Positions 56,881 through 64,000 of a DNA stretch of 64,000 nucleotides are shown here, one piece after another. Below the pieces are notes generated by a model, which had not been told where the DNA came from, ran no database searches, and worked only from the letters and a program-made list of their open reading frames with translations. The stretch lies in the sequence record KC801932, one strand, 5' to 3'. Within the stretch, counting starts at the first letter, position 1. Every line of letters begins with the position of its first letter. Position numbers and translations under genes: made by a program. Origin of the DNA: Escherichia phage Lw1.

Positions 56881-57191
56881 TTACTTTTGATTCTGTTGCA
56901 TTCTTCCGCACACTCTTTTTCCGCAAGGATTTTGCGAACAACCGCGTTTCTGATTTTCCAGAGATAATCGATCATCTGCATATCTTCGGGAGTGTGATAA
57001 CCTTTCATATCGCATTCAAATACGATAGCATCGCGTTCTGACATTGCCATTATCGCGGTAGCCGAACAAATGGTCATCCCACTATATTTTTCAATCAACG
57101 ATTCCAGTGTACGCTTTTCTGCCGGAATGTCAACAGTTATCGGAACAGGACGGATTCTTGTAGTCGAATCGTCGAAGGATTGATAAATCAT
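56865..57191 (-). CDS. Hypothetical protein (108 aa)
   Basis: ORF directly downstream of radical-SAM-like gene. Confidence 0.35.
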   Translation of the reverse strand: MIYQSFDDSTTRIRPVPITVDIPAEKRTLESLIEKYSGMTICSATAIMAMSERDAIVFECDMKGYHTPEDMQMIDYLWKIRNAVVRKILAEKECAEECNRIKSKWGVL

Positions 57192-58342
57192 TTTAACTCC
57201 ACTGCATAAACATCGGTTTCGGGGGCTTTGTGTACGCGCATATCTTTACCACATACCGCATAAGCCGGACAGTTGCGACAACCGTTATGATCCGTGTTGC
57301 CTGTCAGTTCTTTACGGAACTGTTTTGTTTTCGGGTGTTCCCAGATATCTTTGATAAAATCATCGGCTTCAAGGACATTCAAACCTTCACCCCAGCCACC
57401 TTCAACCCAACGTTCGGTAAACGAGCAAGGGAAGAATTCGCCTTTTTCGTTGATGTAAGAGCTAAACATCGTCGCTTCACAATCTTCCGCATACTGCTTG
57501 TATTGTTCGAAGTTCGGGTGTCCCTCCATCGCTTCAACGAAAGCTGGGGCTGAACAGCTATCGAATCCAAATCCTACACCAGAATCAAGGCAGTATTCAA
57601 CAAGTTTTTTGTATTGTTCGCGGGTGACTGTATCCCAGTTCTTACCACGTCCCTTTTGTTTCAGACCCAGGAACACGATCGCGTTGACTTGTTTCAGGCG
57701 CGGATCATTACGCACAGCATCAACAACGGTAAACGCATCATCATAGGTCTTTGAGCTAACCATGAAATGTAGGTTGATTTGCTGTTGTCCTGCTTCTGCC
57801 AGGTTTGCGACGGAATCGAAAGCAACATCGAAGCCAGCATGTTTATAAACCGATACTGCAACAGCCCCAGCAACCGCCGCTAAACGCGCTGCAACGTCTT
57901 TTGATACATCAGCAATGGTAAGGTTCGGTACAATGCCTTTAGAACGCGCATAGGCCATCATATCGAACATATCAGGGTTTGTTTGTCCCTGTGCATCAGC
58001 ACCGAGTGCGCATTGGGTTAACCAGGGCATTTTATCAATGATGGATTTGAAAGAAGCAAGATCCATATTGTAGCCGTTCGGGTTATTGGACTTGTAACAG
58101 AAACCACACAGCTTACCAGCGGGGCCATTACATTTAGTTGTGATCTCGATATCGAGGATAAAAGGAAAATGACTATAAATAGGATCGTCAGCAGGAGTTT
58201 TGCCCCAAGTCATCATATGACCTGTTTTCATATCAAAATTAAAATTAACCTCTTCGGAACGATAGATTTTCTTTCCTTTCGCTTCCAGTAGAAGTCCAAC
58301 AGGCGTTTTGATATGTTTGGCGTTTACTTTAACGTGTCTCAT
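57188..58342 (-). CDS. Radical-SAM-like Fe-S enzyme (approx 384 aa), non-canonical Cys spacing
   Basis: TTKCNGPAGKLCGFCY (Cx7Cx2C) near N-terminus, further Cys cluster CRNCPAYAVC near C-terminus; start at ATG 58342 with AGGT RBS. Confidence 0.45.
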   Translation of the reverse strand: MRHVKVNAKHIKTPVGLLLEAKGKKIYRSEEVNFNFDMKTGHMMTWGKTPADDPIYSHFPFILDIEITTKCNGPAGKLCGFCYKSNNPNGYNMDLASFKSIIDKMPWLTQCALGADAQGQTNPDMFDMMAYARSKGIVPNLTIADVSKDVAARLAAVAGAVAVSVYKHAGFDVAFDSVANLAEAGQQQINLHFMVSSKTYDDAFTVVDAVRNDPRLKQVNAIVFLGLKQKGRGKNWDTVTREQYKKLVEYCLDSGVGFGFDSCSAPAFVEAMEGHPNFEQYKQYAEDCEATMFSSYINEKGEFFPCSFTERWVEGGWGEGLNVLEADDFIKDIWEHPKTKQFRKELTGNTDHNGCRNCPAYAVCGKDMRVHKAPETDVYAVELK

Positions 58343-58354
58343 AGGAACCTCATA

Positions 58355-59083
58355 ATGTATTACGTTTACAGAATCACAAATGTTATAGAGAACAAGCACT
58401 ATTATGGATCAAGAAAACCTAAAAAGTCAATGCTTGCTTCCGACGATTTAGGGAAACACTATTTCAGTAGTTCCCGTGATAGTCATTTCATCCAAGATCA
58501 GAAGGAAAATCCAGGACACTACAAATATAAAGTAATCGTATCGGGGTTGTCAAGGGAAAAGGCGATGAAACTTGAGAAAAGGTTACACGAAATCTACAAG
58601 GTGGACACGAACCCACATTTTTATAACAAACACATACACAACAGCGTTGATTTTTCATGTACACCAGAAACAGGAAAGAAGATTTCACAAACACACCAGA
58701 AATATGCAGCAAAGAAAATTTCAGAATCACATAAAAGGCGATTCAAGGAAGGTATAGCATCACATAAAGGAGAGAACAACCCACGATACAACGATCATCG
58801 GTCTTATGAAGAGATACACGGAGAAGAAAAAGCGGAGACTATACGCAAAGCACAATCTGAATCAAGAAGAGGAAAAGGCAATTCCCGCGCGGTTACGTGG
58901 AAATTTACTTCCCCTAATGGAGAAGAATTTTTAGTTGAAGGAGAATGTAAAAAGTTTTGCAAAGACAGAAATATTTCCATGCGTAAACTGAAAACCTATC
59001 TGGGTGAAGTCATCACAACATGCGATAAACCCTACTATATCTCTAAGAATACCGTAGGATGGAAATTAGAAAAGATTATTTGA
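58355..59083 (+). CDS. Free-standing GIY-YIG homing endonuclease (Seg-like)
   Basis: N-terminal YYVYRITNVIENKHYYGSRK GIY-YIG motif from ATG 58355 (AGGAA RBS); basic C-terminal DNA-binding region; sole plus-strand gene in minus-strand island. Confidence 0.7.
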   Translation: MYYVYRITNVIENKHYYGSRKPKKSMLASDDLGKHYFSSSRDSHFIQDQKENPGHYKYKVIVSGLSREKAMKLEKRLHEIYKVDTNPHFYNKHIHNSVDFSCTPETGKKISQTHQKYAAKKISESHKRRFKEGIASHKGENNPRYNDHRSYEEIHGEEKAETIRKAQSESRRGKGNSRAVTWKFTSPNGEEFLVEGECKKFCKDRNISMRKLKTYLGEVITTCDKPYYISKNTVGWKLEKII

Positions 59084-59967: not shown

Positions 59968-60246
59968 TTATGCCATTTTCTTAGCGATTTTCCAGGCGGC
60001 TTTGAACGCTGGAACGTCTTCAATCTCAACCCAGAAACCAGATCCGAAACCATCATTGTAGCAAGGACAACCGTCGCAGTAGTTTTCCCAGGTCATCACT
60101 TCACCACCAACAGAAGCACCAGTTTCCATAGCGCGTAACGCATCTTCAACTTTTTCCAGTTTTTCGGCGTTGTCGTCGTAAATGGTGAAGTACCATTTGC
60201 CGTTGTATTCGTTACCCAGTTTGATTGCTTCGCGAACAAGTTTCAT
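59968..60246 (-). CDS. Hypothetical protein (92 aa)
   Basis: Start at ATG 60246 (MKLVRE) downstream of cassette 6; CDGCPC motif. Confidence 0.45.
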   Translation of the reverse strand: MKLVREAIKLGNEYNGKWYFTIYDDNAEKLEKVEDALRAMETGASVGGEVMTWENYCDGCPCYNDGFGSGFWVEIEDVPAFKAAWKIAKKMA

Positions 60247-60261
60247 GATGATTTCCTTTTT

Positions 60262-60320
60262 GTCTGTTTCGTTTCGATGTGTGTAATATAACAAAACCCC
60301 TCACCATAGGCAAGGGGTTT
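60262..60320 (-). promoter_or_regulatory. PeSL-like promoter cassette, copy 6 (TTGCCT-17-TATATT, hairpin, full conserved leader)
   Basis: Minus strand: -35 60308-60313, -10 60285-60290; leader ACACACATCGAAACGAAACAGACAAAAAGGAAA nearly identical to copy 1. Confidence 0.55.
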
Positions 60321-60335
60321 CTTTAACAAAACGTG

Positions 60336-60584
60336 CTATTTTGTTTCTTCGAGGATTCGAAGGATTTCGGCGCGGGGGATCGGATGTTTTGCCAGCTCAC
60401 GGATCGCATGATCAAGATGCGTTTTACACATCAAGAATTCTTTCCCGCATTTGTGGCATGTCGCATACATATCACCATGTATACGGTCGATTCCATCCAT
60501 CACATAATACTTCATAAAGACGTAAGGTGTTCCACCATTCCAGCCCCGCGCAACGTGATTACACTCTCGATTGAACCATGACAT
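60336..60584 (-). CDS. Hypothetical protein (82 aa)
   Basis: ORF; CHKCGKEF zinc-ribbon-like motif. Confidence 0.35.
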   Translation of the reverse strand: MSWFNRECNHVARGWNGGTPYVFMKYYVMDGIDRIHGDMYATCHKCGKEFLMCKTHLDHAIRELAKHPIPRAEILRILEETK

Positions 60585-61186
60585 CAGTAATACCCTGGAT
60601 CTTTGAAGTGTGCTTTCATGTATCGCAGAATTTCATGAAGCATCTGGATTTGCTCATGTCCACGTTGTGAAGACATATCGATCATGACGCGAGTCATTTC
60701 GACGTTCTCCAGGCTTGATATACGCTGTTTTAAGGCGTTGTTTTCCTCTTCCAACTCAACCATACGGTCATATGCTTTGATACGCTCCAGAGGCATATCA
60801 GGGCGCTGTTTGAGGACACGGGCGCGGGACACTTCGCATTCGTGATTTGCTTTCCAGTGATCACGTTCACTAGCAATTTTATCGTTCTCCTGGTGTAGAC
60901 GTACAATCTCTTTAAGGAGGCGTTCAGTGGTATCGGGATCAAACGAAACCATGTATTGCATCAGGGATTGCAACCACAGATCCTCTAGCACCGACTGTAA
61001 CGCTTTAGGCCCAATAATGGTAAACGCGCGTTTCTTCATGTTGCTACCGAAACCGTAGTTAACGTTACCCGTAATCGAACCTGGTTGATTCGTACCATCC
61101 CACTTGTCACCGATAACAGGTTTTACTTGCTGAATAGCACGATTCAGTATTTCTAATTCTTCATCTAAAATCATTTCATATCCCAT
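60584..61186 (-). CDS. Hypothetical protein (200 aa)
   Basis: ORF with coiled-coil C-terminal half. Confidence 0.4.
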   Translation of the reverse strand: MGYEMILDEELEILNRAIQQVKPVIGDKWDGTNQPGSITGNVNYGFGSNMKKRAFTIIGPKALQSVLEDLWLQSLMQYMVSFDPDTTERLLKEIVRLHQENDKIASERDHWKANHECEVSRARVLKQRPDMPLERIKAYDRMVELEEENNALKQRISSLENVEMTRVMIDMSSQRGHEQIQMLHEILRYMKAHFKDPGYY

Positions 61187-61575
61187 AATTCATATTGTGA
61201 GCGAAGGATAGCGTAAAGGCTACCGATATGGATCGTGTCTACCGGACACTGGAACAGATCCCCGCGCATCATGTTAAACTCGATATCGTTACGTTCAACA
61301 TAGTTGCCGATCATTGATGTCCAGCCCATCACCAGGTTGTAACCATCTTCCGATAACCCATAAGCCAACTTAACCAAGATGCATCGCTTATCAGCCAGTT
61401 CTACGCGCATATGGGTACTGGTATGGGTGACCTTGTTCGGGAATCTGCGAAACATTTTAGTAAGGAGTTTTGCGGTTTCAATATTGAACGCCAGTTCTTG
61501 ATCCTTACTGGTCTGGTTATCATGACGACGATCCAGATATTTCTTCATTTTCGGATTCAGATTCACATGTTGCAT
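61171..61575 (-). CDS. Hypothetical protein (134 aa)
   Basis: ORF. Confidence 0.35.
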   Translation of the reverse strand: MQHVNLNPKMKKYLDRRHDNQTSKDQELAFNIETAKLLTKMFRRFPNKVTHTSTHMRVELADKRCILVKLAYGLSEDGYNLVMGWTSMIGNYVERNDIEFNMMRGDLFQCPVDTIHIGSLYAILRSQYELWDMK

Positions 61576-61784
61576 AATATATCCCTCACAGGTTTATAAC
61601 GTTCTTTTCCAGTGCCGTTGCATGAACTGCATTTTGGCGATCCGTGGTTATCATATCGCCCCGAACCATTACATGCAACACATTTCCGTAATTTCCAGCC
61701 ATACACGAACCGCATGTAATAATCGGTTCGTGCTGCCTTGCGCTCATGGAAGTTCATACTTTGTTGTAAACCTGAACAACCCAC
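61563..61784 (-). CDS. Small DnaJ-type zinc finger protein
   Basis: Two CxxCxGxG repeats (CVACNGSG, CSSCNGTG). Confidence 0.4.
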   Translation of the reverse strand: MGCSGLQQSMNFHERKAARTDYYMRFVYGWKLRKCVACNGSGRYDNHGSPKCSSCNGTGKERYKPVRDILCNM

Positions 61785-61957
61785 ATTTCGATGTTCGGCG
61801 CGTAAGTAACGTTTACCATCGGCATAGTGCGGTATTTGTAAGCGGCTTTGTACGCATCGAGTTCAGTTGGAACACAGAAAGAGAAACCGTTGTCATAACG
61901 TTCTGCGTTAGAAACTTCATAACCAACTACAGCAGCAATATTTTTGTTCATGTTCAT
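61754..61957 (-). CDS. Hypothetical protein (approx 67 aa)
   Basis: Start at ATG 61957 with AAAGGAAAA RBS downstream of cassette 7. Confidence 0.4.
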   Translation of the reverse strand: MNMNKNIAAVVGYEVSNAERYDNGFSFCVPTELDAYKAAYKYRTMPMVNVTYAPNIEMWVVQVYNKV

Positions 61958-61969
61958 GATGTTTTCCTT

Positions 61970-62030
61970 TCTGTGTTTCGTTTCGATGTGTGTAATATAC
62001 AAAAAAGCCCCTGCATTGCAAGAGGCTTTT
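61970..62030 (-). promoter_or_regulatory. PeSL-like promoter cassette, copy 7 (TTGCAA-16-TATATT, hairpin, conserved leader)
   Basis: Minus strand: -35 62016-62021, -10 61994-61999; leader ACACACATCGAAACGAAACACAGAAAGGAAAA. Confidence 0.5.
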
Positions 62031-62033
62031 GAA

Positions 62034-62993
62034 TTATTTTGGCAATTTTTTGATTAATGCTTGTAAGTCGTTGATTTTAGAAAACAGTTCATCGCTATAT
62101 CGCATCAATTCCTGTCTGCGTTTCGCAGCCCATGAAACCAATGTTTTTGCATCATCAACACCATAAGTGTATCCATCAGCGGATAGACGAATGATCGCAC
62201 GAGAACCGTAGTCAGCATTTGCATGTTCGATTAAAAACTTCACCGCTTCGAGAAGTTCGGAATCTTCCTTACTGACTAGAACACCGTTATCATCAGGAAA
62301 TTCGTTTTCATCATGAACACTTGCAAAATCAAGGTCGATATAATCATCCTGATTCACCTGGCGGCGCGTGTTGTCTTCGAGACTTTCAATCTGTGAAACC
62401 ATAGTTTCGACCGGATCTCTTTCAATTGGTTCTCTGTCGGTTCCTACTTCTTCCAGGAACATCAACAACCAACCAGGGATCAACGAATCAAAAGAACGCT
62501 GAATATGGCTTGCATGGTCACTACCCAGTATTTTCAACGCACAACCGTCTTTAGTAGCGGTATGGATATAGATAACATTACGGTCACGCATACGGCGGCT
62601 ACCATGAGAAAGATAGCGACGTAGCGAAGTGTTATGTCCATAGCGTCCCAGATCCAGGTTACACAGGGAATCAATAGCCCCACGGTTAGCAATCCGGTAG
62701 CGCGTACCAGTTTCAAATCGCAACTTTTCGGTAGTCACTGGTGTGAATTCTTCGTAAAGAATGTAATATTCTTTCGGGATCTCGCGATCAAGAACTCTCA
62801 ATACACCATTCTCCGAAGGAGTGAGCACAGAACGAACATTACCGTTCGCATCGCAATGTACCTGCATGACTTGAGGATAATAGAACCCTTTAGCCTTTAG
62901 GGTGTATTCATGCAAACGACTCAAGCGCTTTCTGTAGTACCATTTACCAGTAACAAACGGGGTTGCAGATCCTGCTAAACTAATTGGTTTCAT
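62034..62993 (-). CDS. Hypothetical protein (319 aa)
   Basis: Long ORF ATGA-coupled to DUF262-like gene. Confidence 0.4.
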   Translation of the reverse strand: MKPISLAGSATPFVTGKWYYRKRLSRLHEYTLKAKGFYYPQVMQVHCDANGNVRSVLTPSENGVLRVLDREIPKEYYILYEEFTPVTTEKLRFETGTRYRIANRGAIDSLCNLDLGRYGHNTSLRRYLSHGSRRMRDRNVIYIHTATKDGCALKILGSDHASHIQRSFDSLIPGWLLMFLEEVGTDREPIERDPVETMVSQIESLEDNTRRQVNQDDYIDLDFASVHDENEFPDDNGVLVSKEDSELLEAVKFLIEHANADYGSRAIIRLSADGYTYGVDDAKTLVSWAAKRRQELMRYSDELFSKINDLQALIKKLPK

Positions 62994-63523
62994 TTTGTGG
63001 CCTTATACATTTCAATTACGCGTTTCATGTGCTCTTGTGATTGAGGCACACCAGCGAAGTTCAATTTAATGAAGAATTCAAGACGATCCTTTTTGGTGCA
63101 TTCATCCAGCCCCAGGGCAGGTAATGACAAGTTTTCAAAGGCTCGTTGTTCATGTCGTTGCATATCATCCCAGAACAGACGGGAACCATCCGGCATAGGA
63201 ATCCCAATCTCACCCTCATAGACTTTGATGATAGTCGTCAGGCGTTGTTTCCCGTCGATTACTTCTACCCAATGGGATTCATTGAATTCACTATCAACGG
63301 CAATCGCGATAATACCACATGGGAAACCAGTGATCAACGTAGTCAGGAATTCATCTTGTTCTTTCTGCGTCCACACGTAGGGGCGCTGATACGATGGATT
63401 CAGATCCAGATCCTTATTTTTCCACCAGTGAATATAACTTCCAACCATGATCGCATGTTCACGACTTTTGAAAGTTATCCGTTCACGAATTCGGTTACGG
63501 GCTGGGATATCATCTTTAGACAT
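62990..63523 (-). CDS. DUF262 / ParB-like nuclease domain protein (177 aa)
   Basis: VIDGKQRLTTI (DGQQR-type motif) and upstream QRPYVW block. Confidence 0.5.
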   Translation of the reverse strand: MSKDDIPARNRIRERITFKSREHAIMVGSYIHWWKNKDLDLNPSYQRPYVWTQKEQDEFLTTLITGFPCGIIAIAVDSEFNESHWVEVIDGKQRLTTIIKVYEGEIGIPMPDGSRLFWDDMQRHEQRAFENLSLPALGLDECTKKDRLEFFIKLNFAGVPQSQEHMKRVIEMYKATK

Positions 63524-63845
63524 TATGGATCACCCACAGCAATAAACAAGAATTGATAACCGCGAAAGTGGTACAAATTGCAGCAAAAACACGCGCATTA
63601 TGAACATCAGTTTTCAGTTCTGCGATCTCTTGATCCTTTTCGCTTTCGAATTCGTCGCGGGTTCCATAGTAACCAGGATCAGCAGGGGTAGCAATACGCA
63701 CAGCATCTTTTTCTACAATAGTCGCATAACCATTGTTTACATTTGTTGCACCGTACCAATCACCACGGTCATTGTTAATGATCAGGTGTTGTCCCTTTTC
63801 ATTGTGCTTTGCTTCACCAGTGACAACTACACGTTTACCGTTCAT
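63516..63845 (-). CDS. Hypothetical protein with C-terminal TM anchor (109 aa)
   Basis: ORF; C-terminal hydrophobic helix. Confidence 0.35.
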   Translation of the reverse strand: MNGKRVVVTGEAKHNEKGQHLIINNDRGDWYGATNVNNGYATIVEKDAVRIATPADPGYYGTRDEFESEKDQEIAELKTDVHNARVFAAICTTFAVINSCLLLWVIHNV

Positions 63846-63848
63846 AAT

Positions 63849-64000
63849 TTATTCCTTCACATGTTGTAACAGGAAGTCTAACAGCTTTCCTTCCTCTTGC
63901 ATAGCATAAACTTTATTAAGTTTTGCGATGTTTTGAAAATCAGTGGTGTCGGCATATTCCCAGACACCATCATCAGAAACAATAGCACCCACTGATAAAC
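63849..64000 (-). CDS. Hypothetical protein, C-terminal fragment (gene starts beyond window end)
   Basis: Open minus-strand frame running into window end, stop at 63849-63851. Confidence 0.3.
   Translation of the reverse strand, partial: LSVGAIVSDDGVWEYADTTDFQNIAKLNKVYAMQEEGKLLDFLLQHVKE

Follow-up and report, generated by a model that had tools for sequence, protein, structure and literature searches.

We describe a conserved two-gene locus in a 64,000-nucleotide stretch of Escherichia phage Lw1 (sequence record KC801932; hereafter, the window), in which a minimal DUF262 protein of 177 amino acids is followed by an overlapping gene for a protein of 319 amino acids, here called the partner. 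The pair is real, nothing in it contradicts current expectations, and it lies at the 3' end of a string of accessory-region genes in a Pseudotevenvirus, a T4-type myovirus of the RB16/RB43 kind. Our leading explanation, tentative and somewhat short of an even chance, is that an autonomous nucleoside triphosphate (NTP)-binding switch is combined with a lineage-specific adaptor in a module related to genetic conflict. The features of the locus are as follows.

62990..63523, minus strand: DUF262 gene, 177 amino acids, minimal DUF262 (ParB/Srx-fold) protein
62034..62993, minus strand: partner gene (long allele), 319 amino acids, phrog_10932 (E = 3.7e-184)
62990..62993, minus strand: 4-bp ATGA stop/start overlap of the DUF262 gene and the partner gene
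62003..62030, minus strand: intrinsic terminator, a 10-bp stem then a T run, directly 3' of the partner stop codon

Both open reading frames (ORFs) were confirmed at the positions given in an initial annotation made from the sequence alone; they are on the minus strand and share the 4-bp overlap. The two genes are the last before the terminator, which is the end of the transcription unit and is also annotated at the same place in phages KP15 and CfP1.

The first gene had been proposed to encode a DUF262/ParB-like domain, and the hidden Markov model search bears this out. The 177-amino-acid protein matches the Pfam family PF03235 (GmrSD_N/DUF262) over residues 40-157 with 73.4 bits (E = 3.5e-20; gathering cut-off, 33.2 bits), which is far beyond chance. 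It also matches phrog_1583 (E = 1.6e-59) and the PADLOC families NsnA (the best, E = 1.6e-16) and PD-T4-2_A (E = 2.9e-12), in both of the latter through the DUF262 part only; the NsnA model is matched at positions 45-205 of 385. The three motifs by which DUF262 is defined (QRxxxW, DGxQR and FxxxN; PMC12065111) are intact.

63371..63388, minus strand: motif I, QRxxxW, here Q46-R-P-Y-V-W51, read from the sequence
63242..63256, minus strand: motif II, DGxQR, here DGKQR (D90-R94), predicted centre of beta/gamma-phosphate binding
63059..63073, minus strand: motif III, FxxxN, here F151-I-K-L-N155, then the family-specific FAGVPQSxEH

The initial annotation had spoken of a DGQQR-type motif, which is the form found in GmrSD-type enzymes; the actual letters are DGKQR, and the DGxQR consensus fits. 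Q46, R47 and D90-G-K-Q-R94 do not vary among 33 aligned homologues, the most distant of which have 23% identity; at W51, F151, N155, G158 and H165, conservation is at least 90%. The AlphaFold model of the protein has a predicted local distance difference test score (pLDDT) of 88.8 and a predicted template modelling score (pTM) of 0.83, and its ParB/Srx fold is confident. Taken together, the DUF262 matches, the conserved motifs and the confident model make the domain assignment secure.

The protein consists of the DUF262 part only, as had been anticipated. It stops 12 residues past H165, just after the motif III region, and thus has neither a helical ParBDB DNA-binding domain after DUF262 nor a DUF1524/HNH nuclease, the latter by Pfam, PADLOC and other profile searches. 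Since members of its clade end a few residues past LNFAGVPQSxEH (with one longer exception, P0021), the clade is a distinct minimal DUF262 family, here called mini-DUF262; some of its more distant members carry an extra N-terminal extension of ~100 residues. The DGxQR motif contacts the beta and gamma phosphates in this fold (PMC12065111). Because the motifs are intact (PMC12065111) and the fold is versatile (PMC12704722), the protein should be able to bind, and would probably hydrolyse, an NTP through its DGKQR centre. Features of canonical ParB were not seen, as there is no ParBc or helix-turn-helix Pfam match and no parA in the annotated flanks of the relatives. The label "chromosome partitioning protein" on the homologue in Pantoea phage Phynn was set aside as an annotation carry-over.

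In GmrSD, SspE, DndB and NsnA, DUF262 is followed by the helical ParBDB domain, and cutting in the characterized relatives is performed by DUF1524, not by DUF262 (PMC12065111). The window protein differs from the GmrSD type IV enzymes (Eco94GmrSD, BrxU) and from SspE in that it ends after DUF262, without ParBDB and without DUF1524/HNH, and in that those enzymes lie in bacterial defence islands, whereas this gene lies in a lytic phage. A nuclease profile was found in neither ORF of the pair, which does not have the make-up of a GmrSD-type enzyme; without ParBDB and DUF1524/HNH, the protein is therefore not expected to cut DNA by the known GmrSD mechanism. A nuclease-less DUF262 protein with separately encoded partners is likewise found in the split DUF262 systems, namely Menshen (NsnABC), PD-T4-2, Dazbog, and GmrS1 of the two-gene system GmrS1/GmrSD2 (for the concept, see PMC12065111; PMC12373910). 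In Menshen, however, NsnA has a ParBDB domain and is accompanied by an ABC ATPase and a toxin-type effector, whereas here there is one small orphan partner. No Pfam match of the NsnB ABC ATPase or NsnC effector kind was found in the seven ORFs at 60584-63845, where the DUF262 gene is followed on its 3' side by the orphan partner and then the terminator. The cognate second genes of PD-T4-2 and Dazbog were not detected beside the DUF262 gene by PADLOC (E <= 0.1), nor was any complete known defence system. Stand-alone NTP-binding modules of the ParB fold are likewise represented by the single-domain phage ParB-CTPase-fold proteins (PMC12704722); ~70% of phage ParB-fold proteins are unfused, several have ATP or GTP, not CTP, as their ligand, and it has been suggested that they counter defence (PMC12704722). 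The survey took PF02195 (ParBc) as its basis, and DUF262/GmrSD is absent from its main text.

The partner, an orphan found only in phages, is built of three parts. It has no sequence match in Pfam, NCBIfam, PADLOC (0 families at E <= 0.1) or PDB. Its membership in phrog_10932, together with a ratio of nonsynonymous to synonymous substitution rates (dN/dS) of 0.15-0.23 against relatives, indicates that the ORF is a real gene; in addition, its last 85 residues match phrog_15764 (E = 4.3e-11). A search of 5.8e9 proteins with the partner returned only four clusters, and a profile search of 1.84e9 representatives with its C-domain returned 17 proteins. The AlphaFold2 model of the whole protein has a mean pLDDT of 62.7 and divides as follows.

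62439..62963, minus strand: partner N-domain, residues 11-185, beta-rich and basic (isoelectric point, pI, 9.6), pLDDT 48-90 in blocks of 10 residues
62271..62438, minus strand: partner linker, residues 186-241, acidic and disordered, pLDDT <50, net charge -13
62037..62270, minus strand: partner C-domain, residues 242-319, modelled over 242-316 as a helix, a beta-hairpin and a terminal helix of ~35 residues

All 13 long-form members of the family have a basic N-domain (pI 8.8-9.7) and an acidic linker. The N-domain may consist of two tandem modules of ~85 residues that arose by duplication, since its halves match in the order of secondary structure and align by global hhalign (P = 3.4e-4), but this is suggestive only. 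The C-domain is the sole part that is common to the long allele and to a short allele of the kind of RB16p167 in phage RB16. With the RB16p167-type proteins it shares the invariant residues D244, L247, A250, V251, K252, G263, G274, Y275, Y277, R292, E295, L296, Y299, L317 and P318. Across the family, the conserved positions are mostly aromatic or hydrophobic (Y19, F83, Y99, P173, L247, L254, Y275, Y299), and the charged helix residues D244, R292 and E295 are conserved as well; no histidine, lysine or metal-binding cluster is conserved family-wide. A BFVD structure search with the partner returned only orthologues and uncharacterized phage proteins, with no structural match to nucleases; the searches revealed no catalytic signature in it, of a nuclease or of any other kind. 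We read the partner as a putative binding or adaptor protein, not an enzyme, because its conserved residues are mostly aromatic or hydrophobic and include no histidine or lysine.

These results bear on the earlier suggestion of a nicking enzyme or a two-gene nuclease, in which either the DUF262 protein cuts DNA or the 319-amino-acid protein is a novel nuclease subunit. In favour of the suggestion are two names: the related ParBc family (PF02195) was formerly called "ParB-like nuclease domain," and RB16p168, the RB16 orthologue of the DUF262 protein, is labelled "similar to DUF262 and HNH endonuclease domain protein," while both genes are otherwise labelled hypothetical in related phage records. 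However, no HNH/DUF1524 or other nuclease profile matches either protein, the partner has none of the conserved residues, metal-binding clusters or structural matches just listed, and the domain that cuts in the characterized relatives is DUF1524 (PMC12065111). A nuclease or nickase is thus highly improbable.

The initial annotation had also presented the two ORFs as coupled. Over bases 61500-64000 the window shares ~94% identity with the Citrobacter phages Xman, Miller, IME-CF2 and CfP1; part of this region is matched by 172 phage records. When synteny was checked in related phages, the pair was found adjacent and with the same 4-bp overlap in eight relatives (Xman, Miller, RB16, KP15, GuL6, EC-W1, and the metagenomic contigs L018 and L019). 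Orthologous pairs with the same order and overlap include RB16p168/RB16p167, KP15_143/KP15_141 and, in Miller, CPTMiller_00178/00177, in which the DUF262 proteins are 78-98% identical. The two genes are still neighbors in Yersinia phage JC221, in Phynn and in the IMG/VR contig L015, where the DUF262 proteins are 49-76% and the partners 21-26% identical to those of the window; in these three, one gene for a multi-pass membrane protein of ~155 amino acids stands between them.

L016 2028-2498: inserted membrane-protein gene of JC221
L017 1823-2287: inserted membrane-protein gene of Phynn
L015 437-895: inserted membrane-protein gene of the IMG/VR contig

The inserted membrane protein has a conserved C-terminus, ...KARKEK(I/V)CP(I/V)IKFE, and a short ORF with the same C-terminus lies just 3' of the DUF262 gene in phage POP12 (L004 3295-3483). 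Among phage records, the partner was found in 168 and DUF262 in 297, and the partner never outnumbers DUF262 in any host genus; the partner is apparently confined to phage groups that also carry mini-DUF262. With the points for and against weighed together, a functional coupling of the two genes is somewhat better than an even proposition.

The partner exists in two forms. RB16p168 is 97.7% identical to the window DUF262 protein, and RB16p167 next to it has only 102 amino acids, which align to the window C-domain at 36% identity; the RB16-type partner is without the N-terminal part of ~215 residues, i.e., the N-domain and most of the linker. This short form is present in RB16, GuL6, EC-W1 and phi1_146002, and tblastn matches of 34% coverage suggest it in further Cronobacter, Enterobacter and Citrobacter phages, so that the 102-amino-acid version may be that of most Pseudotevenviruses. 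The long form is found in the Miller group (95% identity), in Klebsiella Slopekviruses such as KP15 (57% in global alignment; 55-56% by tblastn) and in two metagenomic contigs (74% and 61% identity), and full-length relatives of 21-27% identity occur in JC221, Phynn and uncultured phages. Because of this distribution, including the distant full-length relatives, the long form looks ancestral and the short form would be the product of an N-terminal deletion.

Selection on the two genes was compared. Both are under purifying selection (dN/dS 0.03-0.25), and the nonsynonymous change of the partner is ~1 to 2.5 times that of the DUF262 gene, being equal against the closest relative, Xman. Amino-acid identity between the window and KP15 is 78% for DUF262 and 57% for the partner, and between the window and RB16 the DUF262 gene has a dN of 0.01 and a dS of 0.38, against a dN of 0.59 for the partner C-domain. 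The genes flanking the partner on both sides are 95-99% identical to RB16. A sharp discontinuity between the window and RB16 (L002) falls exactly at the gene junction, 62990-62993, which marks a recombination breakpoint. The discontinuity at the junction, with such similar flanks, points to cassette-like replacement, and the partner locus is thus an exchangeable allele, long or short.

Several observations weigh against a coupled switch and adaptor. DUF262 proteins are 97-98% identical where the partner C-domains are only 31-38% identical, a divergence that would not be expected of a tightly co-evolving interface, and the model confidence of the C-domain is low to moderate (pLDDT 39-76). In Klebsiella phage Earwig_ER32 (Slopekvirus; L010 1492-1653) the DUF262 gene is intact and the partner is a remnant of 53 amino acids. 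Overlaps are usual at the junctions of this string (in Xman, at least 12 of 27), synteny with the IMG/VR contig L015 extends to the genes 3' of the partner, and the wider region is collinear among T4-like phages; synteny is therefore not independent evidence. Mini-DUF262 without a detectable partner homologue was found in Krischvirus, Mydovirus, POP12 and Vibrio phage K139, as well as in a lambdoid-type Salmonella phage contig and in enterobacterial prophages. Finally, our literature searches found no experimental work on the phage mini-DUF262/partner family.

Alternatively, the two genes may be functionally independent, with DUF262 working alone or with host factors and the 319-amino-acid ORF being an unrelated collinear neighbor. 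The occurrence of DUF262 alone in many phage types and prophages, the loss of the partner in Earwig_ER32, the exchange of the partner allele beside a nearly unchanged DUF262 protein and the frequency of overlapping junctions all speak for independence, and remote structural relatives of the partner were found in the T4-like phages PG7, Pet-CM3-4 and Acj9 with no DUF262 link seen. It is harder to reconcile with the counts by host genus, with an adjacency that persists at 21-26% partner identity, or with a pair that is always at the operon end. We regard independence as unlikely, though as a serious contender. Since DUF262 is so often without the partner, it is better described as an autonomous mobile unit, to which the 319-amino-acid protein is a lineage-specific accessory. 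The coupling first claimed holds in that the genes abut and are co-conserved in related phages, but the partner is not a fixed one, as the 102-amino-acid version, its loss in Earwig_ER32 and its frequent absence attest. Earwig_ER32 is a natural partner deletion and offers a ready-made knock-out.

Candidates for more distant partner homologues were tried and rejected. M5b_200 of Mydovirus M5b, which overlaps the DUF262 gene and with 102 amino acids has the size of RB16p167, is not homologous by BLASTP. POP12_099 (250 amino acids, directly 5' of the POP12 DUF262 gene) looks partner-like by eye and would have made the association independent of gene order, but reached hhalign probabilities of only 0.8% and 2.3%, and tblastn gave single-module relatives only. 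The N-terminal extensions of longer DUF262 homologues (P0024-P0037) were compared by hhalign with the partner N-domain, since kinship there would amount to a fusion-type link, and nothing was found.

The carriers of mini-DUF262 include T4-like, Vequintavirinae (Mydovirus), lambdoid and P2-like phages. In the lambdoid-type Salmonella contig the gene adjoins Ead/Ea22, and in the temperate-phage contig L021 and the prophage locus L027 it is near integrase and Ead/Ea22 genes. In K139 it closes the early operon, between rep, which it directly follows, and a terminator, a position that we take to be a P2-type accessory and defence locus. In the RB49-like Krischvirus (L006 1496-3016, L020 996-2516), DUF262 is third in a tight string, after a 223-amino-acid Dcm-annotated protein (no Pfam match) and a 109-amino-acid zinc-ribbon protein. 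A DNA methyltransferase gene lies ~1 kb 5' of mini-DUF262 in Mydovirus M5b and another in the same operon in K139; a link of mini-DUF262 to DNA methylation is possible. A DUF262 gene of 89% identity also occurs in L023 (NZ_JBHSCL010000010.1, a 178,077-bp contig, as large as a Pseudotevenvirus genome, from the assembly of the marine flavobacterium Flagellimonas marina), which is probably contaminating enterobacterial phage DNA rather than Flagellimonas sequence.

Among the sampled Straboviridae, mini-DUF262 was found in Pseudotevenvirus, Slopekvirus and Krischvirus. The gene is in only 52 Escherichia phage records, whereas sequenced T-even coliphages are numerous, which suggests, from counts and not record by record, that the T-evens are without it. 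Pseudotevenvirus and Krischvirus have no hydroxymethylcytosine (hmC) genes and contain cytosine DNA (PMC12115623). Such a distribution would suit phage-borne exclusion, in which DUF262 senses the modified DNA of competitors (hmC, glucosyl-hmC, methylated or phosphorothioate) and a type-IV-like block is exerted through the partner or a host effector, with no nuclease of its own. DUF262 is indeed the sensor of modification or phosphorothioate in GmrSD and SspE, and probably in Dazbog (PMC12065111; bioRxiv 2022.08.27.505566), and the operon-end position in K139 and a DefenseFinder hit marked on the DUF262 gene in one record point the same way. Nevertheless, there is no effector domain anywhere in the pair, PADLOC finds no complete known system, and the absence from T-evens comes from counts; exclusion of this kind is improbable.

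The initial annotation had also raised the possibility of a decoy. A nuclease-less DUF262 protein could poison or titrate host GmrSD/BrxU, SspE, DndB, Menshen NsnA, Dazbog or PD-T4-2, either by joining the host protein in heteromers or by taking up the partners or ligands that the host protein would bind. The phage protein is homologous to the sensor domains of defence systems and has no effector, its best PADLOC match is NsnA, it lies in accessory regions of lytic phages and near integrase and Ead/Ea22 genes in L021 and L027, and a fast-evolving partner would suit an arms race. However, the protein is distant from the solved host enzymes (profile E = 1.3e-7 to BrxU), so that specific heteromers are unlikely; its sequence hardly differs between phages of many host genera; and it is not obvious why a phage with cytosine DNA would need to evade type IV enzymes. 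Furthermore, the strictly conserved residues of the NTP pocket suggest that nucleotide chemistry of its own is needed, and the invariant motifs argue for a working nucleotide-binding domain over an inert mimic. A decoy, possible as it is, is thus weakened, and we give it little credence.

We return to the switch and adaptor. In the mechanism that we propose, the first gene would encode a self-contained minimal DUF262 protein, a ParB/Srx-fold NTP-binding switch with the QRxxxW/DGKQR/FxxxN pocket intact, and the second a non-enzymatic, lineage-specific adaptor. The C-domain of the partner, with its long terminal helix, would dock on the DUF262 domain or dimerize it; the basic tandem beta-barrel N-domain may supply the binding of nucleic acid or another target, replacing the missing ParBDB; and the acidic linker may regulate binding by the N-domain. 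The fast-evolving, cassette-exchanged partner would then be the part that determines specificity in phage-host or phage-phage conflict. A role of the module in genetic conflict is what we consider most likely, because its characterized relatives sense modification or phosphorothioate in defence systems, the gene is located in accessory regions of lytic and temperate phages, it is found in the cytosine-DNA genera and in Slopekvirus, and its partner is swappable and evolves fast. A broader version, in which a widely mobile phage "NTP switch" with rapidly exchanged adaptors constitutes a new class of counter-defence or inter-phage exclusion, is doubtful; phages would in that case have captured the sensor half of type IV or phosphorothioate-dependent restriction and rewired it to a non-nuclease output.

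The remaining genes of the region are less closely tied to the pair. The region has no excess of promoter-like sites over chance (6 observed, 8.4 expected). The gene immediately upstream is the following.

63516..63845, minus strand: 109-amino-acid context gene, phrog_7472, 8-bp overlap with the DUF262 start

It is kept with the DUF262 gene in RB16 (99%) and KP15 (74%) and is absent 5' of the DUF262 gene in the metagenomic contig L019 and in JC221; its product has a hydrophobic C-terminal segment that resembles a membrane anchor by eye. A 73-amino-acid protein at 61563-61784 (minus strand; phrog_12902) has CxxCxGxG zinc-finger repeats like those of the DnaJ central domain, with a Pfam E of 7e-4 that is below threshold. 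Miller has another annotated DnaJ-cysteine-rich ORF a few kb from the counterpart region of this gene, and RB43 is reported to encode a functional J-domain protein. In the same string, the 108-amino-acid protein at 59968-60294 (minus strand) is encoded by a conserved accessory gene and matches Pfam DUF5417 (E = 2.8e-47).

A 256-amino-acid ORF at 58313-59083 (plus strand) lies on the opposite strand within the minus-strand gene string, in a patch of low GC content (0.394), and adjoins a radical-SAM/SPASM gene at 57188-58399 (minus strand). Its N-terminus is GIY-YIG-like by eye (YVYRITN...KHYYGS), with no Pfam match. No matching gene is present at this position in Xman, RB16 or Miller; copies of ~96% nucleotide identity occur in 17 of 169 related records, where all eight of those listed are Klebsiella phages and two of the eight are annotated "homing endonuclease." The ORF looks like a recently mobile homing endonuclease gene common to several genera.

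The two genes of the pair were already in databases as hypothetical proteins and PHROGs. What is delineated here is a compact, strictly conserved, nuclease-less DUF262 protein in several unrelated phage types, with a fast, cassette-like partner in one lineage. In the papers cited above, DUF262 serves bacterial anti-phage enzymes (GmrSD, BrxU, SspE, Menshen, Dazbog) as their modification-sensing NTPase. Should the module be a mere housekeeping accessory, the finding would be an ordinary one, a pair of conserved hypothetical genes whose domain label is right. If it acts in conflict, by anti-defence or exclusion, phages would be reusing the sensor half of restriction systems, and the 177-amino-acid protein would be a small, tractable one with which to learn how nucleotides and DNA are read by the DUF262 pocket.

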